From the IMG/VR virus record IMGVR_UViG_3300044796_000394: a DNA stretch of 64,000 bases; one strand, given 5' to 3'. Below are positions 7,290 through 25,328 of the stretch, piece after piece. The notes below the pieces were generated by a model, which saw only the letters and a program-made list of their open reading frames with translations, ran no database searches and had not been told where the DNA came from. Position numbers and translations under genes: made by a program. Every line of letters starts with the position of its first letter. Positions within the stretch are counted from its first letter, which is position 1. The stretch is from a virus (lineage: Duplodnaviria > Heunggongvirae > Uroviricota > Caudoviricetes).

Positions 7290-8519
7290 TTACACCTTTT
7301 CTAATGCTTGTTCAATGTCCCAAATAATGTCATCGTGATTTTCCAATCCGACTGAGAATCGGATCATCTTATCCGTAATCCCCATCTTAACTTGCTCTTC
7401 TTGCGGAATAGCCGAGTGAGTCATGGAGTATGGGTGTTCGGCAAGCGATTCCGTACTGCCAAGGCTTACGGCCAACTTCGCCAACTTCAAACTGTTAAGG
7501 AACCTGAAACATTCCGCCTCGCCACCTTTGATGTCAAAGGAAATCATTGCCCCACCGGAAGTGTACTGGTTCTTCCAAATTTCAAATTGTTGTCCCGTTG
7601 AATATCCGAGAAAATACACTTTTTCAACTTTAGCGTGTCCTAACAGGAAACCGGCAACGTGTTCAGCATTCTTGGCTTGTGCTTCCATTCTGATCTTTAA
7701 CGTTTCCAAGCTTCGCATCATCATCCAAGCCGTCCAAGGATTTGCCATACTTCCCAAGTGGGATCGCAACTTGCGTACAGGTGCCATCATCGCCTTGCTG
7801 CTGCATACGGAACCGGCAACTAGGTCTGAGTGCCCGCCGATGTACTTGGTAGCAGAATAAAGCGAGTAATCAGCGCCATGCTTGAGCGGCTGTGACCACA
7901 ATGGCCCCATGTACGTATTGTCTACGGCGACAAGTGCCCCGTATTTGTCTGCGATCCGCTTGGCCATCCGAATGTCGTACAGAGTGTTTGTGGGGTTCGC
8001 TGGCGTCTCTACGAAAACCATCTTTGGATAAACAGCTCCCTTGTAGTTTTCCAGCATACTAATAATTTCTTTTTCCGTCTGATCGGGCCAATAGCCGATA
8101 GACTGAATGCCCAAATTCTTCAAGTAATGTTTAATGAAGAAGTGAGTTGCGCCGTACAGGGGATTGCTGTAAAGAACAAGATCGCCCGGTTTGAGGTTGG
8201 CGAGCATAACTGTGGAAATTGCTGCCATACCGCTTTCAAAGGATGCGCAGGCTTCGGCACCGTCCCAAATGGCCAATCTTCCTTCAAGGATTTCCAAGTC
8301 GGGATTGTTCATCCGACTGTAAATCAACCCGGTGGATGATGTGGGGGCTTTGCGACCGCACTGAATGTCAAAGAACTCTTTGCCTTTTTCGGCTGAGTCA
8401 AACACGAAAGTGGAAGTTAAGAAGACTGGAGGCTTGACGGCACCCTCTGACCACGCAGGGTTATAGCCGTGGCTCATCATCAAACTTTCAGGGTGAAATG
8501 CATGTGTCATTGAAGTCAC
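7290..8519 (-). CDS. PLP-dependent trans-sulfuration enzyme (methionine gamma-lyase / cystathionine gamma-synthase family)
   Basis: Motifs PPVFLTSTF, YSRMNNP, SGMAAI, ETPANPT, VDNT, SATKYIGGHSD (PLP lysine), AVSLGSTESL and RFSVGLE. Confidence 0.93.
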   Translation of the reverse strand: MTSMTHAFHPESLMMSHGYNPAWSEGAVKPPVFLTSTFVFDSAEKGKEFFDIQCGRKAPTSSTGLIYSRMNNPDLEILEGRLAIWDGAEACASFESGMAAISTVMLANLKPGDLVLYSNPLYGATHFFIKHYLKNLGIQSIGYWPDQTEKEIISMLENYKGAVYPKMVFVETPANPTNTLYDIRMAKRIADKYGALVAVDNTYMGPLWSQPLKHGADYSLYSATKYIGGHSDLVAGSVCSSKAMMAPVRKLRSHLGSMANPWTAWMMMRSLETLKIRMEAQAKNAEHVAGFLLGHAKVEKVYFLGYSTGQQFEIWKNQYTSGGAMISFDIKGGEAECFRFLNSLKLAKLAVSLGSTESLAEHPYSMTHSAIPQEEQVKMGITDKMIRFSVGLENHDDIIWDIEQALEKV

Positions 8520-8992
8520 TTTAATTGAGAATTTAGAAAATTATTAAAATCTGTTTGCGTATAATTAGCAATCCAAGTATAAAAAATACCGCCCAAGATA
8601 ATACAGCCCAAAAAACCAAATATGAAACATTTTATGAAACGTTTAATCCAATGAGGTTTTGGATTTGGATTATTTGTATGGTCTAAATACTTTTTTAAAA
8701 ACCCCGACTTCATACCGTATTGCTCTATAACCAATGAACCTTTTCCACTCAAAGACCAATTGACAAAAGATGCCAATTGGTTCTTACGATACAATTCTTC
8801 AAATGTTAATATTGCTGGTGTTGGCGGCGGGCCATTATAATGAATTAAGTTATATTGTTCAAGGAGTGATTTCGCTTGTTCAATTACTTGATATTCATAT
8901 TTTCCTTGCTCTAAAGCATTTGATGGGTGCCCATAAACAGGCTCTTTTGCAAGAGAAATCAATATTTCTTCGGCGCAACCTAGTAAACTCAT
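8516..8992 (-). CDS. hypothetical protein with C-terminal transmembrane helix
   Basis: Hydrophobic segment CFIFGFLGCIILGGIFYTWI. Confidence 0.55.
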   Translation of the reverse strand: MSLLGCAEEILISLAKEPVYGHPSNALEQGKYEYQVIEQAKSLLEQYNLIHYNGPPPTPAILTFEELYRKNQLASFVNWSLSGKGSLVIEQYGMKSGFLKKYLDHTNNPNPKPHWIKRFIKCFIFGFLGCIILGGIFYTWIANYTQTDFNNFLNSQLK

Positions 8993-10155
8993 TCCATTAC
9001 CTTTTGTTTATAGCTTAAAGTTATCAAGAGTAATCCGCCGAAACCCACTGACATAAACAAACCAACCATTTGCCAGTGAGTCAAAAAGTGTCCTATTGTT
9101 ACAGACAATGAACCAAACATAATTCCCAATCTACAGAAAACATTGCCGATTGCCATGTAGGAACTTCTGGCATCAGAGGGAATCATGTCAGCCATCAACG
9201 CTTGTTCTGACGGTACCATTACCAATTCGCCCATTGTAGCAATCGCCATTAACAAAATCAATATCCACAAGCAATGGCTGAATCCTGCCATCAAAGACAT
9301 TGCTACAATCAGTACACTTCCGCCAATATAGAGAACCTTGCGGTGATTGGTATTTTTGATCAAGTAGGAAGAAACGATCCCTAACAAAACGACCAACAAA
9401 GTATTTTCTGAAATCAATAAAGTGTAATTGAATAAACTACCTTCGGCGGCACACTTAACTGCCAAGTAGTTTCTGACTTGAAATTCAACAGAGCCGAGGA
9501 AAGCGGCCCCCAAACTGAAAAAGACGAACCGGCGGTCTTTCAAGATAGCCAAATAGTTCTTAACCATATTGTGCTTGGGTTCCGTACCAGCATAGAGTTC
9601 TTTGATGAAGAACTTCAACAGGCACCACGACAAGACAGCCCCTATAGCCATCATCATCATCAAAAGAAATTTGTATTCCAGAAACAGCAATCCGCCTACG
9701 AGACTGCCGCATAGGAACGCCAAATTGTGAAGCCAGTACTGTAGTCCGTAAACGAACTTGCGATCCTTTTCATCCGTAGCATCCAACGTCATTGCTTGTG
9801 AAGCAGGTGCCGAGAAGCCGAATAGGATCGCATTGAGAGAACTGCAAAGTAGCGTAACAACCGGCCACTCGACCAAGTAGTTCGCATAAGCCATACAGCT
9901 GAAAGAAAAGATTTGAATGGTCGTTGTAAACATTAACAGTTTGCGACGACCGAGTTTATCAGAGAGATGTCCGCCGTAGAAACCAGCGATTGAACCCATA
10001 GCGACGTTAACTGTAGTCAATATCCCCGACCACACTTCGCCGAAATGTTGGGCGTAGTAAATGATCATGAACGGAAAAACCATACAACCGAGCAAACAGT
10101 TAACAAACGACTCGAACAACCGTAATTTGATATTACGGTGCAGGGAACGGAACAT
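8989..10155 (-). CDS. Major facilitator superfamily transporter
   Basis: MFS motif A GHLSDKLGRRKLL, about 12 hydrophobic segments, 388 aa. Confidence 0.9.
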   Translation of the reverse strand: MFRSLHRNIKLRLFESFVNCLLGCMVFPFMIIYYAQHFGEVWSGILTTVNVAMGSIAGFYGGHLSDKLGRRKLLMFTTTIQIFSFSCMAYANYLVEWPVVTLLCSSLNAILFGFSAPASQAMTLDATDEKDRKFVYGLQYWLHNLAFLCGSLVGGLLFLEYKFLLMMMMAIGAVLSWCLLKFFIKELYAGTEPKHNMVKNYLAILKDRRFVFFSLGAAFLGSVEFQVRNYLAVKCAAEGSLFNYTLLISENTLLVVLLGIVSSYLIKNTNHRKVLYIGGSVLIVAMSLMAGFSHCLWILILLMAIATMGELVMVPSEQALMADMIPSDARSSYMAIGNVFCRLGIMFGSLSVTIGHFLTHWQMVGLFMSVGFGGLLLITLSYKQKVME

Positions 10156-11135: not shown

Positions 11136-11350
11136 TTTAACTTAACATTAGAGTTGGTTTCAATCCAAACGTGCGCACCACATTTCAACGGCTTGTCTGG
11201 GCTATAAATAATTCTACAAGGACCATCAATAATGACTTCTTTGGCATAATCATTTGATTTATAAGTTTTGACTGTAATCACCGGATCTTTCAATCCGGCT
11301 TTTCTGTTTTTCTTGATAAGATGTTGGTTAACGTGTATGATTTTTTTCAC
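11132..11350 (-). CDS. small conserved phage protein
   Basis: The pattern IHVNQH.I..N...PVITVK...YSPDKPL.CGA.VWIET is one I recall from large myophage genomes. Confidence 0.6.
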   Translation of the reverse strand: MKKIIHVNQHLIKKNRKAGLKDPVITVKTYKSNDYAKEVIIDGPCRIIYSPDKPLKCGAHVWIETNSNVKLK

Positions 11351-12758
11351 TTGATTTCACTCATTTGTAACATTGCCTCTTCAACATAAGGTCTTGAGGA
11401 GAATCTGGTTTTGAGGGTTTTTCCACCACGGGCTTCGCTGAGAAATCGTGCGAAAATCAAACCGTGCTTGATAGGGTCAACGTCGGTAATGCCTAAGACG
11501 TAGTTGCAAAGAGAAGCAACACCACTACCACGACCCGGCCCGACCGCTTCGTGTCCGGTACCCCATCCAAGATATGAGGGGCAAACCCGTCTCGCTTCAT
11601 CCGTGAACATCTTTTGAATGAGGAAGTAACTCGCAAATCCCTTGCGGATAATTAACTCCATCTCTTCCATTGCCCGCATCCAGTAAACCCGCTTGTTCAT
11701 CAAGCCACGCCATTTCATCCCCTGTGTGACGGCTTCTTTGAACTTCTCTTTTTCATCAGCAATGAAGGGTAGTTTGCTTTCCCTGTCAATCTCTACCCCT
11801 CTTGCCTTCTCACATATACGAACGCTATTCCTCTTGGCTTCCTCGAACATTTCAAGAGGAATAACATCCGAATACATTTGCTCCCACTTCTCGTTCAATT
11901 CATCTTCCGACTTCATCCATAGATTCGTGTCCTGCAGTTCAAAAATGTCAGCCTTCTCATCCGCCGCCAACTTTTTCTCAATGTCAGCAATCGTCGTCTG
12001 CTTTTGAATCATCAACATGTATCGCTGGTATTTGCTGTCCGCTTTGTCGCAATAGTGGCAATCCTGCGTCAGAACCAGTGGAATGCCGTACTTTTGATGG
12101 GCTTCAATCAACCATTTGTCGTAGGGTTTCTGTTTGACGAAATCCAGCAACATGAGTTCGAGGTAGAAATTCTTCCCGAACATTTCCATGTATAACTTTA
12201 ACTTTTCTTCCGCCTTATGGCCCGCATGGACAACATCGCCATTACTTGCAACCAAACCTCTATCAAATGCTTGTCCAATCTCACCAATATAACAACATGA
12301 GGAAAACGTTACGCCTTCCTTATGCTTTAAGATTTGTTCGTGAGTCACCCGTGGGTATCTATAATATCCGTTTGCCCATCCCCAACTTGATAATTGAACA
12401 AGGTTCTTATATCCAGTTAAGTTGTGGGCGACGGCGAGGAGGTGATAGCTTTTCTTATGCTCTTTGAATTCTTCGGGCGACATCGCCTTACGTTCATCTT
12501 CATCATTTGTGTGCTTATTTTGAACGTACAGTTCAATGCCATAAATGGGCGATAACGAGTGTCCCGACTGACTCATCTCGTCGCAGGCCCGGATTTGACG
12601 GGGTACAGAACCCATCATGCCGTGGTCTGTGATACACAAATAATGTTGGTCTATTTCTTTGGATCGCTTTGCATATTCCTCTACTTTTGCATAGCCATCC
12701 AATAAAGAAAATCCGAATGTCGATGAACATGCTCAAAGCCTGTTTTATTAAATTTCAT
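11347..12758 (-). CDS. dnaE: DNA polymerase III alpha, N-terminal half (PHP domain plus start of palm). It needs a -1 frameshift near codon 17 and lacks the catalytic PDID region.
   Basis: SD GGAGGT plus ATG 12758 gives MKFNKTGFEHVHRHSDF. The -1 frame continues SLLDGY...ITDHG...GIELY...GYKNL...TQDCHY...GPGRGSGVASL...FARFLSEAR, then a short tail and stop at 11347. Confidence 0.9.
12659..12714 (-). promoter_or_regulatory. Candidate -1 programmed ribosomal frameshift signal (slippery heptamer plus hairpin)
   Basis: G_GAT_TTT (12714-12708), a 5-nt spacer CTTTA, then TTGGATGGCTATGCA / 14-nt loop / TGCAAAGCGATCCAA (12702-12659), with 13 of 15 positions pairing. Confidence 0.65.
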
Positions 12759-13588
12759 GACGTACCTCCCATTCTTTTTAAGTTCTTAATATAATTTTCA
12801 TAGTCTGCTTTATCGTATTTGGCATTTTTTTTAGCGTTATCGCTTGATGACAATGGTTGAAGATTTGACAAATCATTAATGATTTTCAAATTCCAAACGC
12901 CATGATCAATAAACGCTTTGACGGGAATGATGTGATCAAGATGCCAATCACCATCTTTAACACTTAACCAATTGGGATGACTTTCGATGTGATCTTTGAG
13001 TTGTCGCCAATCATAACCCAACAATTCCAAAGTTCTAGCTGCTTTTTTCTTGCCAGTATACTTCAATGCATGAGTCAATGCTTTATGACAACGATCTTTG
13101 AAACTCATTTCAAGTGCTAATGCTTCTCTGTCTTCCCGCCATTGGTAATTATTTTTACCAGTTATACGAATTCTTTGACACTCTTTACATCGTCTTCCAC
13201 GCTGAAAATTATTCCATCTAATTATGGAATCGGTGCCACAAACACAAGTATATCTCATCAATGTTTGAGAGTCAATATATTCTTTTTCTAATAACTTACA
13301 GCCTTGTGAAACAAAATAGTCATGAACATACTCATGTGTCAAACCTCTTGTTTCTTTTAGTTTTTGAGCTATTTTTTTAAAGCCGCATTTTCTACAACGA
13401 TTACCTCGTTTAAAACTATCTAAAACGATCTTACTGGTATTGCCGCAACTACATCGATAATTTAAAGGCGTGCGAGCATTCTTGTACTCTTCATCTAATA
13501 ATTCGCACCCTTGATCCGCAAAAATTTGTTTGACATGTTCGTAGGAAAACTTTAACTTGTCTGCTGTTTTTTCATATCTTGTCTTCAC
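12755..13588 (-). CDS. HNH homing endonuclease with Cys-rich repeats
   Basis: Two QGC.LL..EY...Y.C.CG...F.RG.RC..C repeats and a C-terminal WHLDHIIPV...NLQPL...N..KN. Its stop overlaps the dnaE ATG (ATGA). Confidence 0.85.
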   Translation of the reverse strand: MKTRYEKTADKLKFSYEHVKQIFADQGCELLDEEYKNARTPLNYRCSCGNTSKIVLDSFKRGNRCRKCGFKKIAQKLKETRGLTHEYVHDYFVSQGCKLLEKEYIDSQTLMRYTCVCGTDSIIRWNNFQRGRRCKECQRIRITGKNNYQWREDREALALEMSFKDRCHKALTHALKYTGKKKAARTLELLGYDWRQLKDHIESHPNWLSVKDGDWHLDHIIPVKAFIDHGVWNLKIINDLSNLQPLSSSDNAKKNAKYDKADYENYIKNLKRMGGTS

Positions 13589-13845
13589 TCTATTATAACC
13601 ACTCCTTTGAAAACCTGAAAGGCTTGTGTGGAAGTAATCCTTTTTTCCAACTTAATAAAGAACGTGGTGTCGTCTGGCAAATTTTCATCTAAGATGAACT
13701 GCTTGATGACACTATACACTTTCTTCTTCAATAAATCATCATACGTTTGATCGACCATGAATCTAAAGCTTTTGTGCAAAGACGCATTCAGAGATTTGAT
13801 TCGTTTGGATCTGACCCACGTATTTTTCACTTTCATATTATTCAT
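13585..13845 (-). CDS. hypothetical protein
   Basis: 86-aa ORF in a packed run. Confidence 0.5.
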   Translation of the reverse strand: MNNMKVKNTWVRSKRIKSLNASLHKSFRFMVDQTYDDLLKKKVYSVIKQFILDENLPDDTTFFIKLEKRITSTQAFQVFKGVVIIE

Positions 13846-15136: not shown

Positions 15137-16690
15137 TCAAACTGCTGGTTCGCCGACAGTCACCTGATCGTCCTTGCAGTAATACATGATCTGTTTTTCA
15201 TCCTTGTCTTTGGAAAGGATCGCACATGGCCCTCTCCAAATTGCGCTCAGCGCCCGCATGGTTTCCTTGGTCTTGGATGGGTGGAGTGTTCGTCCATCCC
15301 ATTCGTGTTCCATGAGGAAGATGCGTTGGCCTTTGTAGTTGGGTTCAACCAACTTGATCACGGGCAGGCCACGGTTAACATACTTCTGGATGAGCATCGC
15401 CTTGATCTTCTGAGCATCCCGCTCCATGATCTTGTAGGTACCATCAGGGAATTTCTTCCACTGATAGAATTGATGCTTGTCGCAGAATTCTTGGGTGAAG
15501 AATTCCGCCAGTGCGGTGACGTCGTTGTAGTGGCGACGGACTTCGAAAATCTTGTCGTGGCCGAGGCCGAGTTTCTTGTCCCACTTCGCCTTAACTTGTG
15601 CGTCTTCGCATTCATCCCATTCTTTGCCGAACTGTCCCTTGTTCCAACGTTCCTCAATGTCGGTGAGAAGCATGTATCCGAGTTTGTACGGGTTCATACT
15701 TGTCTTACCACCGAGAACACCGGCTTTGTGGGCGGCATACTCCACAATCCCGTCGTCTTTGGCGAGACCGTATTGAGCCATCATCTGACTATCGACTCTG
15801 GATGCCCAACCTTCGTTAAGCATCTTCGTCTGCCCTTGTGGGGCAAAGTACATTGCTTCTCGGTACATCATGCTGATGATGTCTTGTTGCCAAGGCTTCA
15901 ACGGGGCATGATCCTTGAGATAGCCGAAAATGTCCTTATCGGGCTTCTCAAACAATCCGATGCTCTTGCGGACTTCTTCATCCTTGATACGTCCGTATTC
16001 CGAGTCGATGTACTTCTGGTCGTTGATCCACTCTTCCATGTACTCATGTCCCTCTTGGACTTTGAGACGACGAGGATGTTCCACATGGCGGCGGACCGAA
16101 GGGATCGGGTCGTGCGAAATGCGGCGGTTCCAAGCTTTGGACGAGTCGATCAGCGTTTCCACCGACATGATGCGGTTGATGAAACGGTTAACATTTTCCT
16201 TGCCCCATTCCGCCGACAACTTGCGGATACGGGTACCGTGGTTCGCCAGTTCATTCATCATGTTCTGGGAAGTCTGGGAGAAGAAGATGTTGTTTTTGAA
16301 GAAGTCGTTGTGGCCGGTTGCGTGAGCAATAACAGTCACATGGTCAACCCACGTATTGGAGTCAAGACAGTAGATGTAGCACGGGTTCGTGTTAATCACC
16401 ATCTCGTAAATACGGTGCATGCCGTATTCGTATCCACGTGAGAGGTCTTCGTACTGTTCGCCGAACGACCAATGCGGGAAGCGGACGGGGAAACCGCCGT
16501 AAGCGGCCACTTCCGAGATACCGTCGTAGTCCAAGAATTCTACGACTGTGTCATAGAAGTCCAGACCCCAATCACGGCACGATTTGAGAATGCCGGGAAT
16601 TTCTTTCAGAATTTCGGGGGGAATCTTAACCCCCGGAATTGTATTGTCCCCTTTGAGTAGTTCAGGGGACTGCATCAGATTAGCAGCCAT
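15137..16690 (-). CDS. spoVR: SpoVR/YcgB family protein
   Basis: Motifs GFPVRFPHWSFG, IYEMVIN.NPC, VIAHATGHNDFFKNN, YF.PQ.QTKMLNEGWAS and NPYKLG, plus an AGAGGAG SD. Confidence 0.95.
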   Translation of the reverse strand: MAANLMQSPELLKGDNTIPGVKIPPEILKEIPGILKSCRDWGLDFYDTVVEFLDYDGISEVAAYGGFPVRFPHWSFGEQYEDLSRGYEYGMHRIYEMVINTNPCYIYCLDSNTWVDHVTVIAHATGHNDFFKNNIFFSQTSQNMMNELANHGTRIRKLSAEWGKENVNRFINRIMSVETLIDSSKAWNRRISHDPIPSVRRHVEHPRRLKVQEGHEYMEEWINDQKYIDSEYGRIKDEEVRKSIGLFEKPDKDIFGYLKDHAPLKPWQQDIISMMYREAMYFAPQGQTKMLNEGWASRVDSQMMAQYGLAKDDGIVEYAAHKAGVLGGKTSMNPYKLGYMLLTDIEERWNKGQFGKEWDECEDAQVKAKWDKKLGLGHDKIFEVRRHYNDVTALAEFFTQEFCDKHQFYQWKKFPDGTYKIMERDAQKIKAMLIQKYVNRGLPVIKLVEPNYKGQRIFLMEHEWDGRTLHPSKTKETMRALSAIWRGPCAILSKDKDEKQIMYYCKDDQVTVGEPAV

Positions 16691-16716
16691 TCGTAAGTCT
16701 CCTCTAAGGGTTGGGG

Positions 16717-17958
16717 TTAGGCGATTTCTTCGATCTTAACACTTTTCTTGCTGCTCTTGACACCTTTGCCGAGCAGTTCTTTCAGAGCGTTCTTGACGGC
16801 GGCGTCACGATTTTCTGGTGTGGAGAAGAAGTCCCAACCAGCATCCTTCGGACGATCAACCGACGTTGTGCGGACATGATCCGAGTACAACTTACCTTGC
16901 TCCAAAGACTTGTCCACAGCCGCCTTGAGTGTTTGCTCGTAGCTATAAGCCATGACTTGTGTGATGCCGAAAAGGTTAACCGCTTTCGGCCCCAAATCCT
17001 TCTGCAGCAACTTGATGAAGGTGCTGTTATCATTCATTTCGTTTTCGCCGTCACCGAAGTAGAAGGCGTAGATATTCCACTTGGCAGGATCGAACTTGCC
17101 CTTCGGCGAGATGAGCTTCTTCATCAAACGCAGAGCGGACGAACAACGAGTACCACCACCGTACCGCAAGTTGTAGAACACTTCTTGCGAAACTTCCTTG
17201 GCTTCCGTATCGTGCCACAGGTAGACGGATTCTGTCTTCTTGTAGAAGGTGCGAATCCAGAGGTCGAGCCACCAGCTAATATCGCTCACTACGTCGCACT
17301 TGTTAACATCCATCGAGCCGGAACCGTCTCGCATGAAGAAGATCACAGCATTGCTGCTAGGCTTCTTAATGATGTTGTATTGGCGATAGCGACGATCATC
17401 GTTGTTGGGGAGCAAGAGGGGAACGTTTTGATTGTACCCCAAGAGCGGGTGAAGCTCTTGCAAATTGCCTTGTGCGGCCATTCGCTTCATCGTTTGGCGA
17501 AGTGTTTTTCGCTTGTGGAGAAGTGCGTTCGGGCCAATCTTCGAGATGCCGTTATAAACGACTTTTTCATCTTCGAAGGTTTGGCTGGCTTTGGGTTGGA
17601 GATCAGGCAATTCCAATTCGTCTTTGAGCATCTTGACGATGTACTCAAGATCAACTTGAATGTTAATGCCTTCGGCGGGATCGTCCCCGGCATCGTGACC
17701 ATCCTTGCCCTTACCCTTGGCAGGATCTTTGCCGATAATATCGCCCGGCTTGCCCGGCCCACGACCTACACCATCTTGCGGCTTTCCGAAAGTGATGTGT
17801 GGGAGTTCAATGCGTGGGATCGTAATCCCGATTTTGCCGTTTTTACCACGTTGACGGAAGATTTGACCCGTCTTAATGAACTTCTTGAGTTCTTCGTTAA
17901 CCTTTCCGGAAACCGTATCACGGAATTCCTTGTGGTCTTCTTGGATGTTGTGCGATAT
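16717..17958 (-). CDS. yeaH: YeaH/YhbH (DUF444) vWA-domain protein with an apparent ATA start
   Basis: The frame extends 327 nt upstream of the track's ATG (SHNIQEDHKEFRD...IPRIELPHI.FG, then a Gly-rich linker). Motifs are DDRRYR, AVIFFMRDGSGSM (MIDAS), GGGT.CSSA and WNIY.FYFGDGEN. An in-frame TAA lies 4 codons before ATA 17958, with SD-like TAAGGTG. Confidence 0.9.
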   Translation of the reverse strand: MSHNIQEDHKEFRDTVSGKVNEELKKFIKTGQIFRQRGKNGKIGITIPRIELPHITFGKPQDGVGRGPGKPGDIIGKDPAKGKGKDGHDAGDDPAEGINIQVDLEYIVKMLKDELELPDLQPKASQTFEDEKVVYNGISKIGPNALLHKRKTLRQTMKRMAAQGNLQELHPLLGYNQNVPLLLPNNDDRRYRQYNIIKKPSSNAVIFFMRDGSGSMDVNKCDVVSDISWWLDLWIRTFYKKTESVYLWHDTEAKEVSQEVFYNLRYGGGTRCSSALRLMKKLISPKGKFDPAKWNIYAFYFGDGENEMNDNSTFIKLLQKDLGPKAVNLFGITQVMAYSYEQTLKAAVDKSLEQGKLYSDHVRTTSVDRPKDAGWDFFSTPENRDAAVKNALKELLGKGVKSSKKSVKIEEIA

Positions 17959-18136
17959 GGCAGCACCTTACTTTCTGTAGCTGGAATCAAATCATTTTTG
18001 GAACAGGATATTCACCAGCAAAATACCCATTCGCAGAACACCGTAATTGATACTTAACAAATTGATAGAAAGAAGATGATGCTTATGTGTTTATTTTAAC
18101 AATCAAAAATCAAAATGGAAGCGGAGTTAATTTGAT

Positions 18137-18171
18137 AAAAAACAGGGCAGTGGCCATTCCACTGCCCTGTT
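18137..18171 (-). terminator. Intrinsic terminator after prkA
   Basis: 13-bp stem AACAGGGCAGTGG/CCACTGCCCTGTT with a 5-nt loop and a T-tract on the minus strand. Confidence 0.8.
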
Positions 18172-18180
18172 CAATTACAT

Positions 18181-20283
18181 TCAGTCGCCGGTATCGCCAC
18201 GGGCGAAGATGCTCGCCACGTAGTTCAGAACGTCGGTGGCACTGTTCTCGTTGTATCCGAAGTTGCGGATCATACGAGTCTTCACAGCGTCGATCTTCTC
18301 TTGAAGGTCTTTGTCGCCGACAGTCGCACCCTTGGACAGAGCCGAGAGCTTGATGGTGTCTTTGGTGTCCTCAAAGAGCTTCTTCTCCAAAGCCTTGGCC
18401 AGCTTGGGATTCGAGTCCCACTTAACTTCCTTGCCACGCAAGTGAGCGGTACCGATGAAGGTAGCGATCTGGCGGCGGAAGTCATCGGCGTATTGCTCAC
18501 CGATTTCGGCCTTCTCTTCGATGCTCCGCATCAAACGTTCGTCCGGTTCTTCTTCCTTGCCGGTGAACGGATTGGTGATCTTCGTCTTCTCAACGTGGGC
18601 GACCACGTTGTCGATGTAGTTGGTGTACAACCGGACGATTGCGTTCTCGTCGCTCACCAGAGCCTTCTGCACTTCGTTCTTCAGGATGTCGTCCAGTTCC
18701 TTCTTGACGAGCTCCACGCAGTTGTCGTACCAGCTCTTGTCGTTCTCGTCCACGATGAGGGCGAAGTTGCCCAAACCGGCCTTGATTTCGTTCAAGACCA
18801 TGAACATGTTAACATAGCCGGGGTTGTCCACCAAGGCGTTGCTAATCTTGTTCTGGACGTATCGAGCCGACACGCCACGAGCCATACCTTCGTTCGGGTA
18901 CTTGTCCCGAAGTTCCTTCACACGGTCTTCCGTCCAGTTGGGCAAGCTGCGTCCGTCGTACAGCTTCGCCTTGTCCACAGGGCTGACGGAGTCCTTACCG
19001 TCTTGGAGCCGAGTGAGGATCGCCCACAGAGCGGCGATTTCAAGGGTGTGAGGGGCGATGTGGATGTGTTTAACACGATCCTTGCCGTAGTCTTGTTCCA
19101 AGACCTTGATTTCATCGCTCCACTTGAGCAGGTAAGGCACGTCGACCCGCACGGTGCGGTCTCGGAGAGCTTCCATCGTAACGTCTTGCTGGAGCTTGAC
19201 GAATTCGGGGTTGTTGGTGTGGCCGATGATGACCATGTCAACATCGATCTGAGGGAATTTCTTCGGTTTGAACTGGCGTTCTTGGCAGACGCCGAGCAAG
19301 TCGTACAGGAATTCCTTTTCCAGTTTGAGGACTTCGATGAATTCGATGAAGCCACGGTTGGCAACTTCAAACTCACCGTCGAACCCGAAGGCACGAGGGT
19401 CGCTGTCCACACCGTAGTGAGCCAGCTTGGTGTAGTTAATGTCACCGGTGAGTTCGGTGGCGTCTTGGTTCTTCGGATCTTTCGGTTGGAAGGTACCGAT
19501 ACCGATACGCTTCGATTCGCTCAGCACGATGCGGCTGACCCGAATGTGGTTCTCGACCACTTTGCCCCAATCGCCTTGATAGCGAGCGAGCAGTTTGTCC
19601 ATGAAGAACTGGCAGATCGGGTTAAGTTCGCCGCCGAGTTTGATGCGGTGCAGGTTGCCCTTTTCCGCTTCGGGGGTGATCTCTTCGTTGATGATGTTGA
19701 GCTTCTCTTCGATATCCTTGCGTTGAGCCAAGGCGATCAGCTTGAGAGGGTCGTCGTTCATCGGGCACTTAACTTCATCTTTGATGTCGAGTGCTTCGTG
19801 GATGGTCACGCCGTCGTTATCTTTCACGGCGCCGAGGTTCGTCCACGTATAGGTGTAAATCGCACCTTCGTCGGTTTGGCTGAAGCGTTCCAAGCCACGC
19901 TTCAACAGACGGCAGATCGTGGATTTGCTGCTACCCACAGGGCCGTGCAGCAAGAGAATCCGCTTTTCGGTGCCGTACCAGTCAGCGGCACCCTTAATGT
20001 GCTTGACCAAGCTGCCGAGGGTGTCTTCCAACCCGTGGATCGGAATTTCGACGTCGTTGAAGAATTTGTACTTGGTGACCTTCTTGCGGTATTTAACCGA
20101 CTCGTAGGTGCCGGGGGCAATCACCATGTTGTACAGCCGTTGGTAGGCGCTGTAGGCCAGTTTCGGTTGAGCGAAAACGGCGTCCAAGTACTCAGTGAAC
20201 GTCATGGTTTTGTTCAGCTTGTTGTACTTTGCACGGTCGAACTTCGCAGCCAGTTCCTCGAAACGGCGGGTCTTTGCAGTCAT
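18181..20283 (-). CDS. prkA: PrkA/YeaG AAA+ ATPase (annotated serine protein kinase)
   Basis: Motifs RILLLHGPVGSSKST (Walker A), GIGTFQPKDPKNQDATELTG, SDPRAF.FDGE..VANRG..EFIEVLK, IGHTNNPE and EALRDR. Start at ATG 20283 with a GGAG SD. Confidence 0.95.
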   Translation of the reverse strand: MTAKTRRFEELAAKFDRAKYNKLNKTMTFTEYLDAVFAQPKLAYSAYQRLYNMVIAPGTYESVKYRKKVTKYKFFNDVEIPIHGLEDTLGSLVKHIKGAADWYGTEKRILLLHGPVGSSKSTICRLLKRGLERFSQTDEGAIYTYTWTNLGAVKDNDGVTIHEALDIKDEVKCPMNDDPLKLIALAQRKDIEEKLNIINEEITPEAEKGNLHRIKLGGELNPICQFFMDKLLARYQGDWGKVVENHIRVSRIVLSESKRIGIGTFQPKDPKNQDATELTGDINYTKLAHYGVDSDPRAFGFDGEFEVANRGFIEFIEVLKLEKEFLYDLLGVCQERQFKPKKFPQIDVDMVIIGHTNNPEFVKLQQDVTMEALRDRTVRVDVPYLLKWSDEIKVLEQDYGKDRVKHIHIAPHTLEIAALWAILTRLQDGKDSVSPVDKAKLYDGRSLPNWTEDRVKELRDKYPNEGMARGVSARYVQNKISNALVDNPGYVNMFMVLNEIKAGLGNFALIVDENDKSWYDNCVELVKKELDDILKNEVQKALVSDENAIVRLYTNYIDNVVAHVEKTKITNPFTGKEEEPDERLMRSIEEKAEIGEQYADDFRRQIATFIGTAHLRGKEVKWDSNPKLAKALEKKLFEDTKDTIKLSALSKGATVGDKDLQEKIDAVKTRMIRNFGYNENSATDVLNYVASIFARGDTGD

Positions 20284-20511
20284 GCTCGCTCCATAATAGA
20301 TGGGTGCCGTTTGAGGCACAAGAAATGCCGAAACTTAGATTTCGGACGAATTGATAATGTGATGAAGAGACTTTGATAACCGACGTATTATTTAACCAAG
20401 CAAATTATTTATCAACGATAATTACTCAACCAACTGTCAACAAAAGTCATAAAGAAGATGATGTAAATTGTAACAAGAACCAAACCTTCAATCCATGCGA
20501 ATAAATCTTCT

Positions 20512-24113: not shown

Positions 24114-24896
24114 TTACAGCATAGTTTTGAACTTTTTGAGAACAGTCATGCTGGCATCATTGGTTCGCCAATCGTACTCTGGGTGCCATTGAGTTGAGAT
24201 CCACTTATCACCTGTCATCAACTCAATCACGAATTTGCAGTCTTGGTGTCCCACGAATGAGAAACCGTAAACTTTAACGCCCTTCGATCCATCGTAATCG
24301 GACTTGCTTTTCGTACCGTAGTACATCAACCCTTGGTGGTGGAACGAATTCACCCACAGGGTTTCATTGGGGGTGATCTTCATGTGTGCATTGATCAAAG
24401 CTCGTTCAGCCGATTGAGCATAATCGAAGTTTGCCATGAAGTCTTCGGGATTGACGAGCGTGACGCTGTGGGTCGGTTCCCAAACCTTAACGTCAATTTG
24501 GCCGCTTGGCTGATGGCACACAGCGCCGCCCGTCAAGTCGGTGACGAGCTTCATCCCTTTACTGACGCCGATCATTTGATGACCACGACAAATGCCGAAG
24601 AGAGGTTTGCCCATCTCGTACACGTTGTTCAAAATGGCAAGCTCACGTAAATCACGCTTGTAATCAAAGCGTGTTAAGTTGCTGCCGTTCGTGATAGATT
24701 CGCCGTAAATGGTTGGGTGAATATCAACACCACCACACAAGATGACAGCGTGACACTTCTTGACCCATTTTTTGATGGTATCAGGATCGTTCATATACAG
24801 CATCAGGGGTTCGCCGCCGAGCATATTCTCGACCATATCGATACAGTCGGGCGTAAACTGACTCGGTCCAGTGAGTCCGATGATTGGCTTGGCCAT
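24114..24896 (-). CDS. Class I glutamine-amidotransferase-like gamma-glutamyl hydrolase (peptidase C26/PuuD-like)
   Basis: Motifs KPIIGLT, GGVDIHP..YG, RD..E, GICRGHQ, VNSFHHQ and QWHPE. Confidence 0.9.
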   Translation of the reverse strand: MAKPIIGLTGPSQFTPDCIDMVENMLGGEPLMLYMNDPDTIKKWVKKCHAVILCGGVDIHPTIYGESITNGSNLTRFDYKRDLRELAILNNVYEMGKPLFGICRGHQMIGVSKGMKLVTDLTGGAVCHQPSGQIDVKVWEPTHSVTLVNPEDFMANFDYAQSAERALINAHMKITPNETLWVNSFHHQGLMYYGTKSKSDYDGSKGVKVYGFSFVGHQDCKFVIELMTGDKWISTQWHPEYDWRTNDASMTVLKKFKTML

Positions 24897-24935
24897 TACC
24901 TTGTCCTAAAAAAGAGTAAAGCGGTTAGTGGTATA

Positions 24936-25328
24936 TTAACCCACGCTGTCGGTGGTTTCTAGTTTAGTTTCTGAAGGGAATGGAATAGTTTTTTCGCAAC
25001 CCTTCACCTTGAAAACCGGGGGCTTTGGTTCGTCTTTCTTTAACACTTCCACGGCCAAAGGATGCAACTTGGCCAAATCTTGAAGAAACTCCAATGTGAA
25101 CTTGGCCTGATCTTCATCTACCCGTGGCCCCCAAGTACTCACCATCAATTTCAAAAGCCCAGTATCCTGCCAACCAGCGACTTTAGCCGCCTGATAAGCA
25201 GCAGCCTTGGCCTGTGCAGAAGTACCAGCCCATGTTTTAGAACCCATGTCCATCCAATCTTCAATGTTGAGCTTAATGCCCTGACGTTGGATGTCGCCAT
25301 TTAGGCTTACAATAACAGGATTACTCAT
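24936..25328 (-). CDS. hypothetical protein
   Basis: 130-aa ORF with a GAGGT SD. Confidence 0.6.
   Translation of the reverse strand: MSNPVIVSLNGDIQRQGIKLNIEDWMDMGSKTWAGTSAQAKAAAYQAAKVAGWQDTGLLKLMVSTWGPRVDEDQAKFTLEFLQDLAKLHPLAVEVLKKDEPKPPVFKVKGCEKTIPFPSETKLETTDSVG

Follow-up and report, generated by a model that had tools for sequence, protein, structure and literature searches.

A one-base break near the start of a phage dnaE gene, probably compensated by −1 ribosomal frameshifting and lying beside an HNH endonuclease gene

The gene for the N-terminal DnaE subunit in a 64,000-nt stretch of DNA from a peat phage (here called the window) is one base short within its first metal-binding motif. 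The explanation we favor, with a probability of about 60%, is a corrective −1 ribosomal frameshift on U_UUU, aided by a hairpin, with the lesion itself probably favored by an adjacent HNH endonuclease gene. At codon 17, a small share of ribosomes would move back by one base on U_UUU, and the predicted hairpin 5 nt downstream would stall them, yielding the full 470-aa subunit. Such a shift would be corrective and would not constitute a regulatory gate; the initial annotation had proposed that recoding limits polymerase production, for which no support was found and which fits less well than a compensated lesion. The same motif is broken in several different ways among relatives, and the alleles that resemble ribosome hops are enriched beside genes of this HNH family; the break is best read as a compensated lesion tied to the upstream HNH gene. 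The features concerned are:

13585..13845, minus strand: conserved 86-aa neighbor at the upstream edge of the HNH insertion; its homologue lies directly 5' of dnaE in relative G001
12755..13588, minus strand: free-standing HNH endonuclease gene, 277 aa, open frame (PHROG 559/681)
12764..12769, minus strand: Shine-Dalgarno (SD) sequence GGAGGT, 5 nt 5' of the dnaE ATG and within the tail of the HNH gene
12681..12758, minus strand: zero-frame ORF of 25 aa bearing the first PHP motif, HVHRHSDF
12708..12714, minus strand: candidate shift site G_GAU_UUU, one base shorter than the intact spacing
12659..12702, minus strand: predicted 3' hairpin, 5 nt past the shift site, with 13 of 15 stem positions paired and a loop of 14 nt
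11347..12708, minus strand: −1 frame, encoding what remains of the N-terminal DnaE subunit, with the PHP domain and the beginning of the NTPase domain

The SD sequence, the ATG at 12758, the 25-codon ORF, the G_GAU_UUU heptamer, the 5-nt spacer, and the 13-of-15-pair hairpin described in the initial annotation are all present. The duplex of the SD with the anti-SD is predicted at −13.1 kcal/mol, a strength that none of the 66 intact alleles of relatives reaches, and the dnaE ATG shares the tetranucleotide ATGA with the stop codon of the HNH gene. Translation in the zero frame gives MKFNKTGFEHVHRHSDFLYWMAMQK and terminates at a TAG at 12683-12681 (minus strand); the HVHRHSDF in this peptide agrees with the HxH of relatives. 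The U_UUU tetramer lies in phase at 12711-12708, in codons 16-17 and inside the heptamer. With the DG dipeptide as anchor, usable in 103 of 103 alleles, the distance from the second His to DG is 17 nt in the window versus 18 nt in intact alleles, and reading −1 at the T run brings back both the canonical 18-nt spacing and HSDFSLLDG. From SLLDG onward the −1 frame continues to 11347, and the trans-frame product of a codon-17 shift is 470 aa, which upholds the earlier claim that the conserved PHP motif is completed only by −1 reading. At the position of the shift, 9 of the 63 intact alleles counted carry a run of five T's; the window carries four.

The missing base is real and not an assembly slip. 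Two public runs contain the stretch, X1 (DNA) and X2 (an RNA library from another study), and their Logan contigs, rather than reads, both cross the shift site without an indel and show four T's at 12708-12711. Over 20 kb, two differences from the window appear: both runs have an inserted base at position 98, and one run has a SNP. Detection of the 1-nt difference at position 98 establishes that the contig comparison is able to reveal single-base errors. Assembly recovered the four-T form from two samples, at 10-17x; the RNA-library contigs, which may derive from DNA, are covered in all 30 bins at about 5-16x. A T5-to-T4 homopolymer error, named earlier as the main alternative, is by this comparison largely excluded. 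An assembly or sequencing error in the T run would gain some credit from the window being one base off both contigs at position 98, and from the possibility that X1 is the window's source, with contigs, which lose rare variants, being compared; given that both contigs match at 12708-12711 and that one comes from an Illumina library of a different study, we regard such an error as very remote. X2, although a separate study, samples the same population (one SNP in 20 kb versus the window), too close a sample to speak for persistence of the allele over time. Position 98 itself lies in a minus-strand ORF of 362 aa that extends from 1076 to the left edge of the window; as the two Logan contigs carry an additional base there, the window probably has this ORF's C-terminal frame mis-assembled. 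A screen of the 74 of 223 called genes that have a homologue, blind near gene ends and thus at the dnaE site, turned up no other colinear frame switch.

The protein sequence of the subunit is undecayed. It matches Pfam PF02811 and PF07733 and positions 9-393 of the 1022 in TIGR00594, it carries 5 conservative changes across 145 conserved columns, where 108 homologues have a median of 4, and it displays no rate excess relative to G001 (chi2 0.44 and 1.19). The virus record that holds the break, G000, is 174.7 kb in size, estimated as 35% complete, and labeled a provirus in IMG/VR. An identical 451-aa product is encoded on a 614-kb contig and the complete relatives are 527 and 572 kb, from which G000 probably belongs to a huge phage. 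In the two complete relatives there is no PolB match and only a PolA-like frame of 408-423 aa, so DnaE is likely the replicase of this phage family. Of five relatives, three encode the two dnaE halves as separate genes with 10-22 kb between them, one has them fused, and the fifth is a fragment with the N-half only; the C-half is absent from the 35%-complete G000, which is no sign that it has been lost. The split falls just past an F.RFLS motif (window 11347-11400; also L039, L040, L041, and L043), and no intein was seen at the split. Host-like genes occupy window positions 7290-10155 and 15137-20319, among them an MFS transporter (Pfam), what we take from its motifs to be a trans-sulfuration-type PLP enzyme, and a presumed PrkA-YeaH-SpoVR-like trio that flanks dnaE in relatives too. 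A single tRNA-Leu(TAG) gene was found at L031:8597-8671.

How unusual the break is became apparent from a wide sampling of relatives' DNA, in which 253 anchored loci yielded 103 distinct dnaE 5' ends of the window's family; left aside were L267 (another family), L171 and L207 (no anchor), and L185 and L186 (distant). These alleles comprise 66 that are intact, 32 with short gaps, 4 with inserts of 223-240 nt, and the window, which is the sole −1 allele. The first PHP motif is nevertheless a break hotspot, as 36 of the 102 other alleles are broken there. That the window carries a plain lesion had been suggested by the first 24 relatives, all in frame, and was overturned by this wider sampling. 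The alignment of relatives' 5' ends, proposed earlier as a check, revealed neither a conserved −1 break (0 of 102) nor a conserved 3' hairpin (present in none), an outcome that the initial annotation had itself listed as refuting, and the conservation expected of a bacterial −1 frameshift is lacking. A −1 frameshift stands as the most likely rescue of this one allele.

Targeted IMG/VR scans for other −1 or +1 dnaE alleles returned a single match, which was by chance and in an unrelated gene. At the protein level, P0040 and P0032 back-read as one base too many at the F-S step where the window is broken; IMG/VR held no DNA for P0040, and a search of the region yielded no further +1 proteins. If the breaks are recoded, gene callers truncate polymerases of this family; 27 of the 120 top homologous proteins have abnormal N-termini. 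The N-termini of P0002, P0010, P0017, P0022, and P0052, close homologues at 59-73% identity, are abnormal, and P0002, the closest relative found, may be interrupted too; the four closest alleles with DNA are intact. The 223-240-nt inserts (L046, L049, L162, and L269) occupy two positions of the same PHP motif and resemble ORF-less group I introns, as judged by eye from their motifs. In L162, the intron-like insert is accompanied by an upstream HNH gene, which suggests collaborative homing.

The 32 gap alleles appear to constitute a family of candidate ribosome hops. Their gaps measure 5-8 nt in 26, 40-47 nt in 5, and 54 nt in 1, the last as the total of two inserts. A stop codon directly follows the last in-frame codon in 28 of the 32, and the final gap triplet equals that codon at 2 or 3 positions in 31 of 32, compared with 37 of 160 comparison triplets. 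The 54 nt up to the take-off codon fold with a median of −21.5 kcal/mol, as opposed to −8.6 kcal/mol for the 66 intact alleles at the best of four positions, and the 5' stem ends within 3 nt of the take-off codon in 30 of 32. When 14 of the 21 His-stop alleles were aligned (three rows being short at the 5' end), 92% of the cells paired and four pairs changed on both sides, whereas slid controls gave 38-56%. On a quick tree covering 100 of the 103 alleles, the hop state changes 18 times, at least 13 of which are forced by well-supported branches. A strong SD score of hop alleles was discarded as confounded by the GGAG in their hairpin arm.

Several forms can be told apart among these alleles. 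Candidate minimal hops consist of a His codon, a stop, and 2-5 further bases, mostly ending NAY (L044, L050, L058, L061, L062, L064, L077, L087, L097, L102-L105, L127, L131, L137, and others); they are preceded by a covarying hairpin of 12-14 bp, with its 3' arm terminating at the His codon and its 5' arm lying over the likely start region. Six alleles (L181, L183, L184, L100, L106, and L115) carry an in-frame Leu-stop-Leu at two different motif positions and are candidates for natural in-frame stop hops, with readthrough as the alternative; none was known according to a 2016 review (PMC5009743). In L048, L055, L057, L063, L079, and L081, the gaps of 40-47 nt contain a second, internal GC-rich hairpin as in gene 60, and L081 has two separate inserts within the same PHP motif. 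The window has none of the hop signature: one base is missing, there is no gap, no stop precedes codon 26, and its 5' fold reaches only −6.7 to −6.9 kcal/mol at codons 14-17 versus the hop median of −21.5 kcal/mol. Judged from its sequence, the window allele does not belong with gene 60-type bypasses, which its relatives do resemble.

The HNH gene supplies a possible reason for breakage at this site. In L001, L009, and L010, no HNH gene lies between the same flanking genes and a gene of 80-83 aa adjoins dnaE instead; by gene order, the HNH gene of the window is an insertion relative to the closest relatives in its clade. The window HNH shares 45-52% identity with the best dnaE-adjacent HNHs of other clades, and a paralogue with 38% identity is found at G000 24206-24970 (L027:5206-5970). 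Among hop alleles, 11 of 32 have a homologue of the window HNH adjoining dnaE; the figures are 1 of 3 for the intron alleles that could be assessed and 2 of 66 for intact alleles. For hop versus intact, Fisher's p is 5e-5, and with near-copies collapsed, the sole means by which relatedness was handled in the Fisher and rank tests, the counts are 10 of 27 and 2 of 62. Some of these dnaE-adjacent homologues are remnants. L135 and L145 have an intact dnaE right behind open HNH frames, with a junction as in the window, which shows that presence of the HNH gene does not force a break, and the link between HNH genes and dnaE breaks is best described as an association. In two of the seven sister pairs compared (L062/L090 and L077/L182), upstream similarity picks up again in the hop allele only after an additional stretch of about 860 and 1090 nt, and this stretch contains both the HNH gene and a different dnaE 5' end. 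The replacement 5' piece was seen in these pairs; the window's nearest sister is only 74% identical, with no near-identical one at hand.

Turning to the shift signal itself, the hairpin arms are at 12702-12688 and 12673-12659, the spacer reads CTTTA, and the zero-frame stop sits in the loop. At 5 nt, the predicted hairpin falls within the 5-9 nt at which 3' structures of bacterial −1 frameshift sites lie, and U_UUU is of a form expected of slippery sites (X_XXY_YYZ, or Z_ZZ.N in phase). With a window size picked after the hairpin had been seen, its z-score is −3.8 against dinucleotide shuffles, 0.8% of 3000 synonymous shuffles are equally stable (p=0.008), and 4.6% of 1294 coding windows of the genome are equally stable (0.046). 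It ranks 31 among 453 overlapping windows of its own gene, the z-score is the lowest of 103 same-register stretches, and the hairpin is more stable than the equivalent in 23 of 23 relatives of similar GC content. The hairpin is an independent clue for the shift, though by these folding models it is only moderately unusual. The slippery motif is weak evidence, because a one-base deletion in a five-T run creates U_UUU automatically. A loose heptamer of the G_GAU_UUY type occurs in 10 of 64 intact relatives, and the window's G_GA is also loose, not strict; a loose heptamer together with an equally stable fold occurs at 24 of 40,082 codons in G000. No internal SD was found 5' of the shift site (−1.4 kcal/mol). 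GGAUUUU is a plant-virus frameshift heptamer and had been offered earlier as a precedent. A closer one is the bacterial U_UU.U tetramer, which, according to Sharma et al. (PMC4066793), is third among E. coli −1 tetramers and depends on a 3' structure; six good tetramers with the IS3 pseudoknot gave 0.26-5.6% shifting there, and tetramers without a 3' structure gave 0.147% versus a background of 0.112%.

Two further explanations deny the signal a role. The window allele could be a recent loss-of-function deletion that is dead or nearly so, the hairpin being fortuitous and the phage defective, dormant, or complemented by a polymerase of the host or a co-infecting phage. Its uniqueness among 103 alleles, the derivation of both samples from one population, the ease with which base loss from a T5 run yields U_UUU unaided, and the provirus class of the record are all as this explanation would have it. 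The provirus label, however, is also attached to 2 of 5 relatives and the protein is found as well on the 614-kb contig, a whole-genome size for this family; the four-T form was assembled in two samples at 10-17x, no further frame switch appeared in the 74 genes screened, the hairpin has p=0.008, and the lesion falls within the stretch broken in 36 relatives. On balance, we consider a dead allele unlikely. Alternatively, rescue might be unprogrammed: slippage on the T run at background level, whether in translation or in transcription, would suffice while the hairpin stands idle. A four-T run is short for polymerase slippage, the RNA-library contig, though perhaps DNA, has no extra base, and ribosomal shifting on tetramers lacking a 3' structure barely exceeds background in the figures just quoted from PMC4066793. 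The apparent +1 of P0040 and P0032 at the same step hints that single-base changes may be tolerated, and 'Savior' indels with low compensation are described in PMC5009743; even so, we rate unprogrammed rescue as distinctly unlikely.

Ribosomes might also produce a subunit by other routes. One entails no change of frame: ribosomes that terminate at the TAG would begin anew at UUG 12702, or at an AUG further on, and generate a 451-aa subunit without the HxH strand, and hence a polymerase with weak or no proofreading. An in-frame TTG does lie 21 nt ahead of the stop, and gene callers begin there (P0001), but this UUG has no SD (−3.3 kcal/mol) and sits in the 5' arm of the hairpin, and preservation of the HVHRHSDF motif together with its SD would be hard to account for; we rate restart as very unlikely. 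A forward hop, the usual solution in the window's dnaE family, could take off from AAG (codon 25) before the UAG and land 5 nt on (GAG) or 17 nt on (a matched AAG) in the −1 frame. The stop after AAG, the matched codon, and the correct frame are suggestive, yet LYWMAMQK would replace SLLDGYAKV with loss of a conserved Asp, and the 54 nt up to AAG fold at −10.6 kcal/mol versus the hop median of −21.5 kcal/mol, leaving a forward hop with little to recommend it. Against the preferred −1 rescue itself, it must be noted that a single allele permits no covariation.

If corrective −1 frameshifting indeed operates here, tRNA-Phe would re-pair from UUU to UUU, perhaps with near-cognate slippage of tRNA-Asp as well, at a frequency on the order of a percent, and the very strong SD and the coupling to the HNH stop would offset the low shift rate. 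The HNH endonuclease would cut intact dnaE alleles near the PHP motif, and the missing base would render the phage's own allele immune, by analogy with T4, in which the 50-nt gap in gene 60 protects against MobA nicking according to bioRxiv 10.1101/2022.08.31.505936. It is enticing to extend this proposal to the whole family, tentatively and at somewhat less than even odds: the HNH family would target the first PHP motif, and carriers would escape by hops, by group I-like introns, or by loss of one base and gain of a new −1 signal, all of these routes (gaps of 5-8 or 40-47 nt, introns, a single base) converging on one 24-nt site. If true, this would be the first −1 frameshift serving as nuclease immunity and the first required for any full-length replicative polymerase subunit, and it would point to an origin for recoding signals in which a selfish nuclease favors any break in its target and translation adapts later. 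Few cases of natural programmed bypassing are known (T4 gene 60 and its homologues, Magnusiomyces mitochondria, and Hau3). In this family there are 32 hop-like alleles, which have a covarying 5' hairpin ending at the take-off codon, as well as the −1 variant, and the location of these breaks within about 25 codons of the start makes them suited to short reporters. A search of PMC open-access and bioRxiv text, with subscription journals outside its scope, returned nothing on frameshifting or bypassing in a phage dnaE.

Among known systems, E. coli dnaX shifts at about 50% late in the gene, on A_AAA_AAG with an internal SD, and a shorter subunit results. The window resembles it in having a candidate −1 shift site, followed by a 3' hairpin, in the gene for a Pol III subunit, and differs in that the shift would occur at codon 17 and be required for any full product. 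With IS3-family −1 frameshifting (Sharma et al. 2014, PMC4066793), the window shares U_UU.U, the prospect of cognate re-pairing, and a 3' structure at 5 nt; in that work, both products of the IS elements are useful and a pseudoknot served as the stimulator tested, whereas the window has a predicted simple imperfect hairpin, a 25-aa zero-frame peptide, and no internal SD. By analogy, the window allele would work like IS3-type frameshifting, yet it departs from such systems in conservation. The 10-nt bypass in Streptomyces phage Hau3's terminase gene and the Magnusiomyces byps, with short gaps and a slow A-site codon as described in PMC10732093, come nearest to the relatives' 5-8-nt gaps and not to the window allele, which has no rare-codon sensor. 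The remaining comparison is with the T4 mobA/gene 60 cassette. The target is dnaE in the window and topoisomerase in T4, and the likeness to MobA is one of arrangement; the window is one base short, without the gap, A-site stop, and take-off or 5' stem-loop of gene 60, and its rescue would be a −1 frameshift, while its relatives have gaps of 5-54 nt. In its genetic layout, the window nonetheless aligns with a MobA-type cassette, the HNH gene lying next to its putative target and being absent in sisters. Going by bioRxiv 10.1101/2022.08.31.505936 for the T4 cassette, both have a free-standing HNH gene (about 270-280 aa) that overlaps the start of an essential replication gene, a target broken in a conserved motif such that recoding would be needed, and a patchy spread, with sisters that have or do not have the element and decayed remnants of the nuclease.
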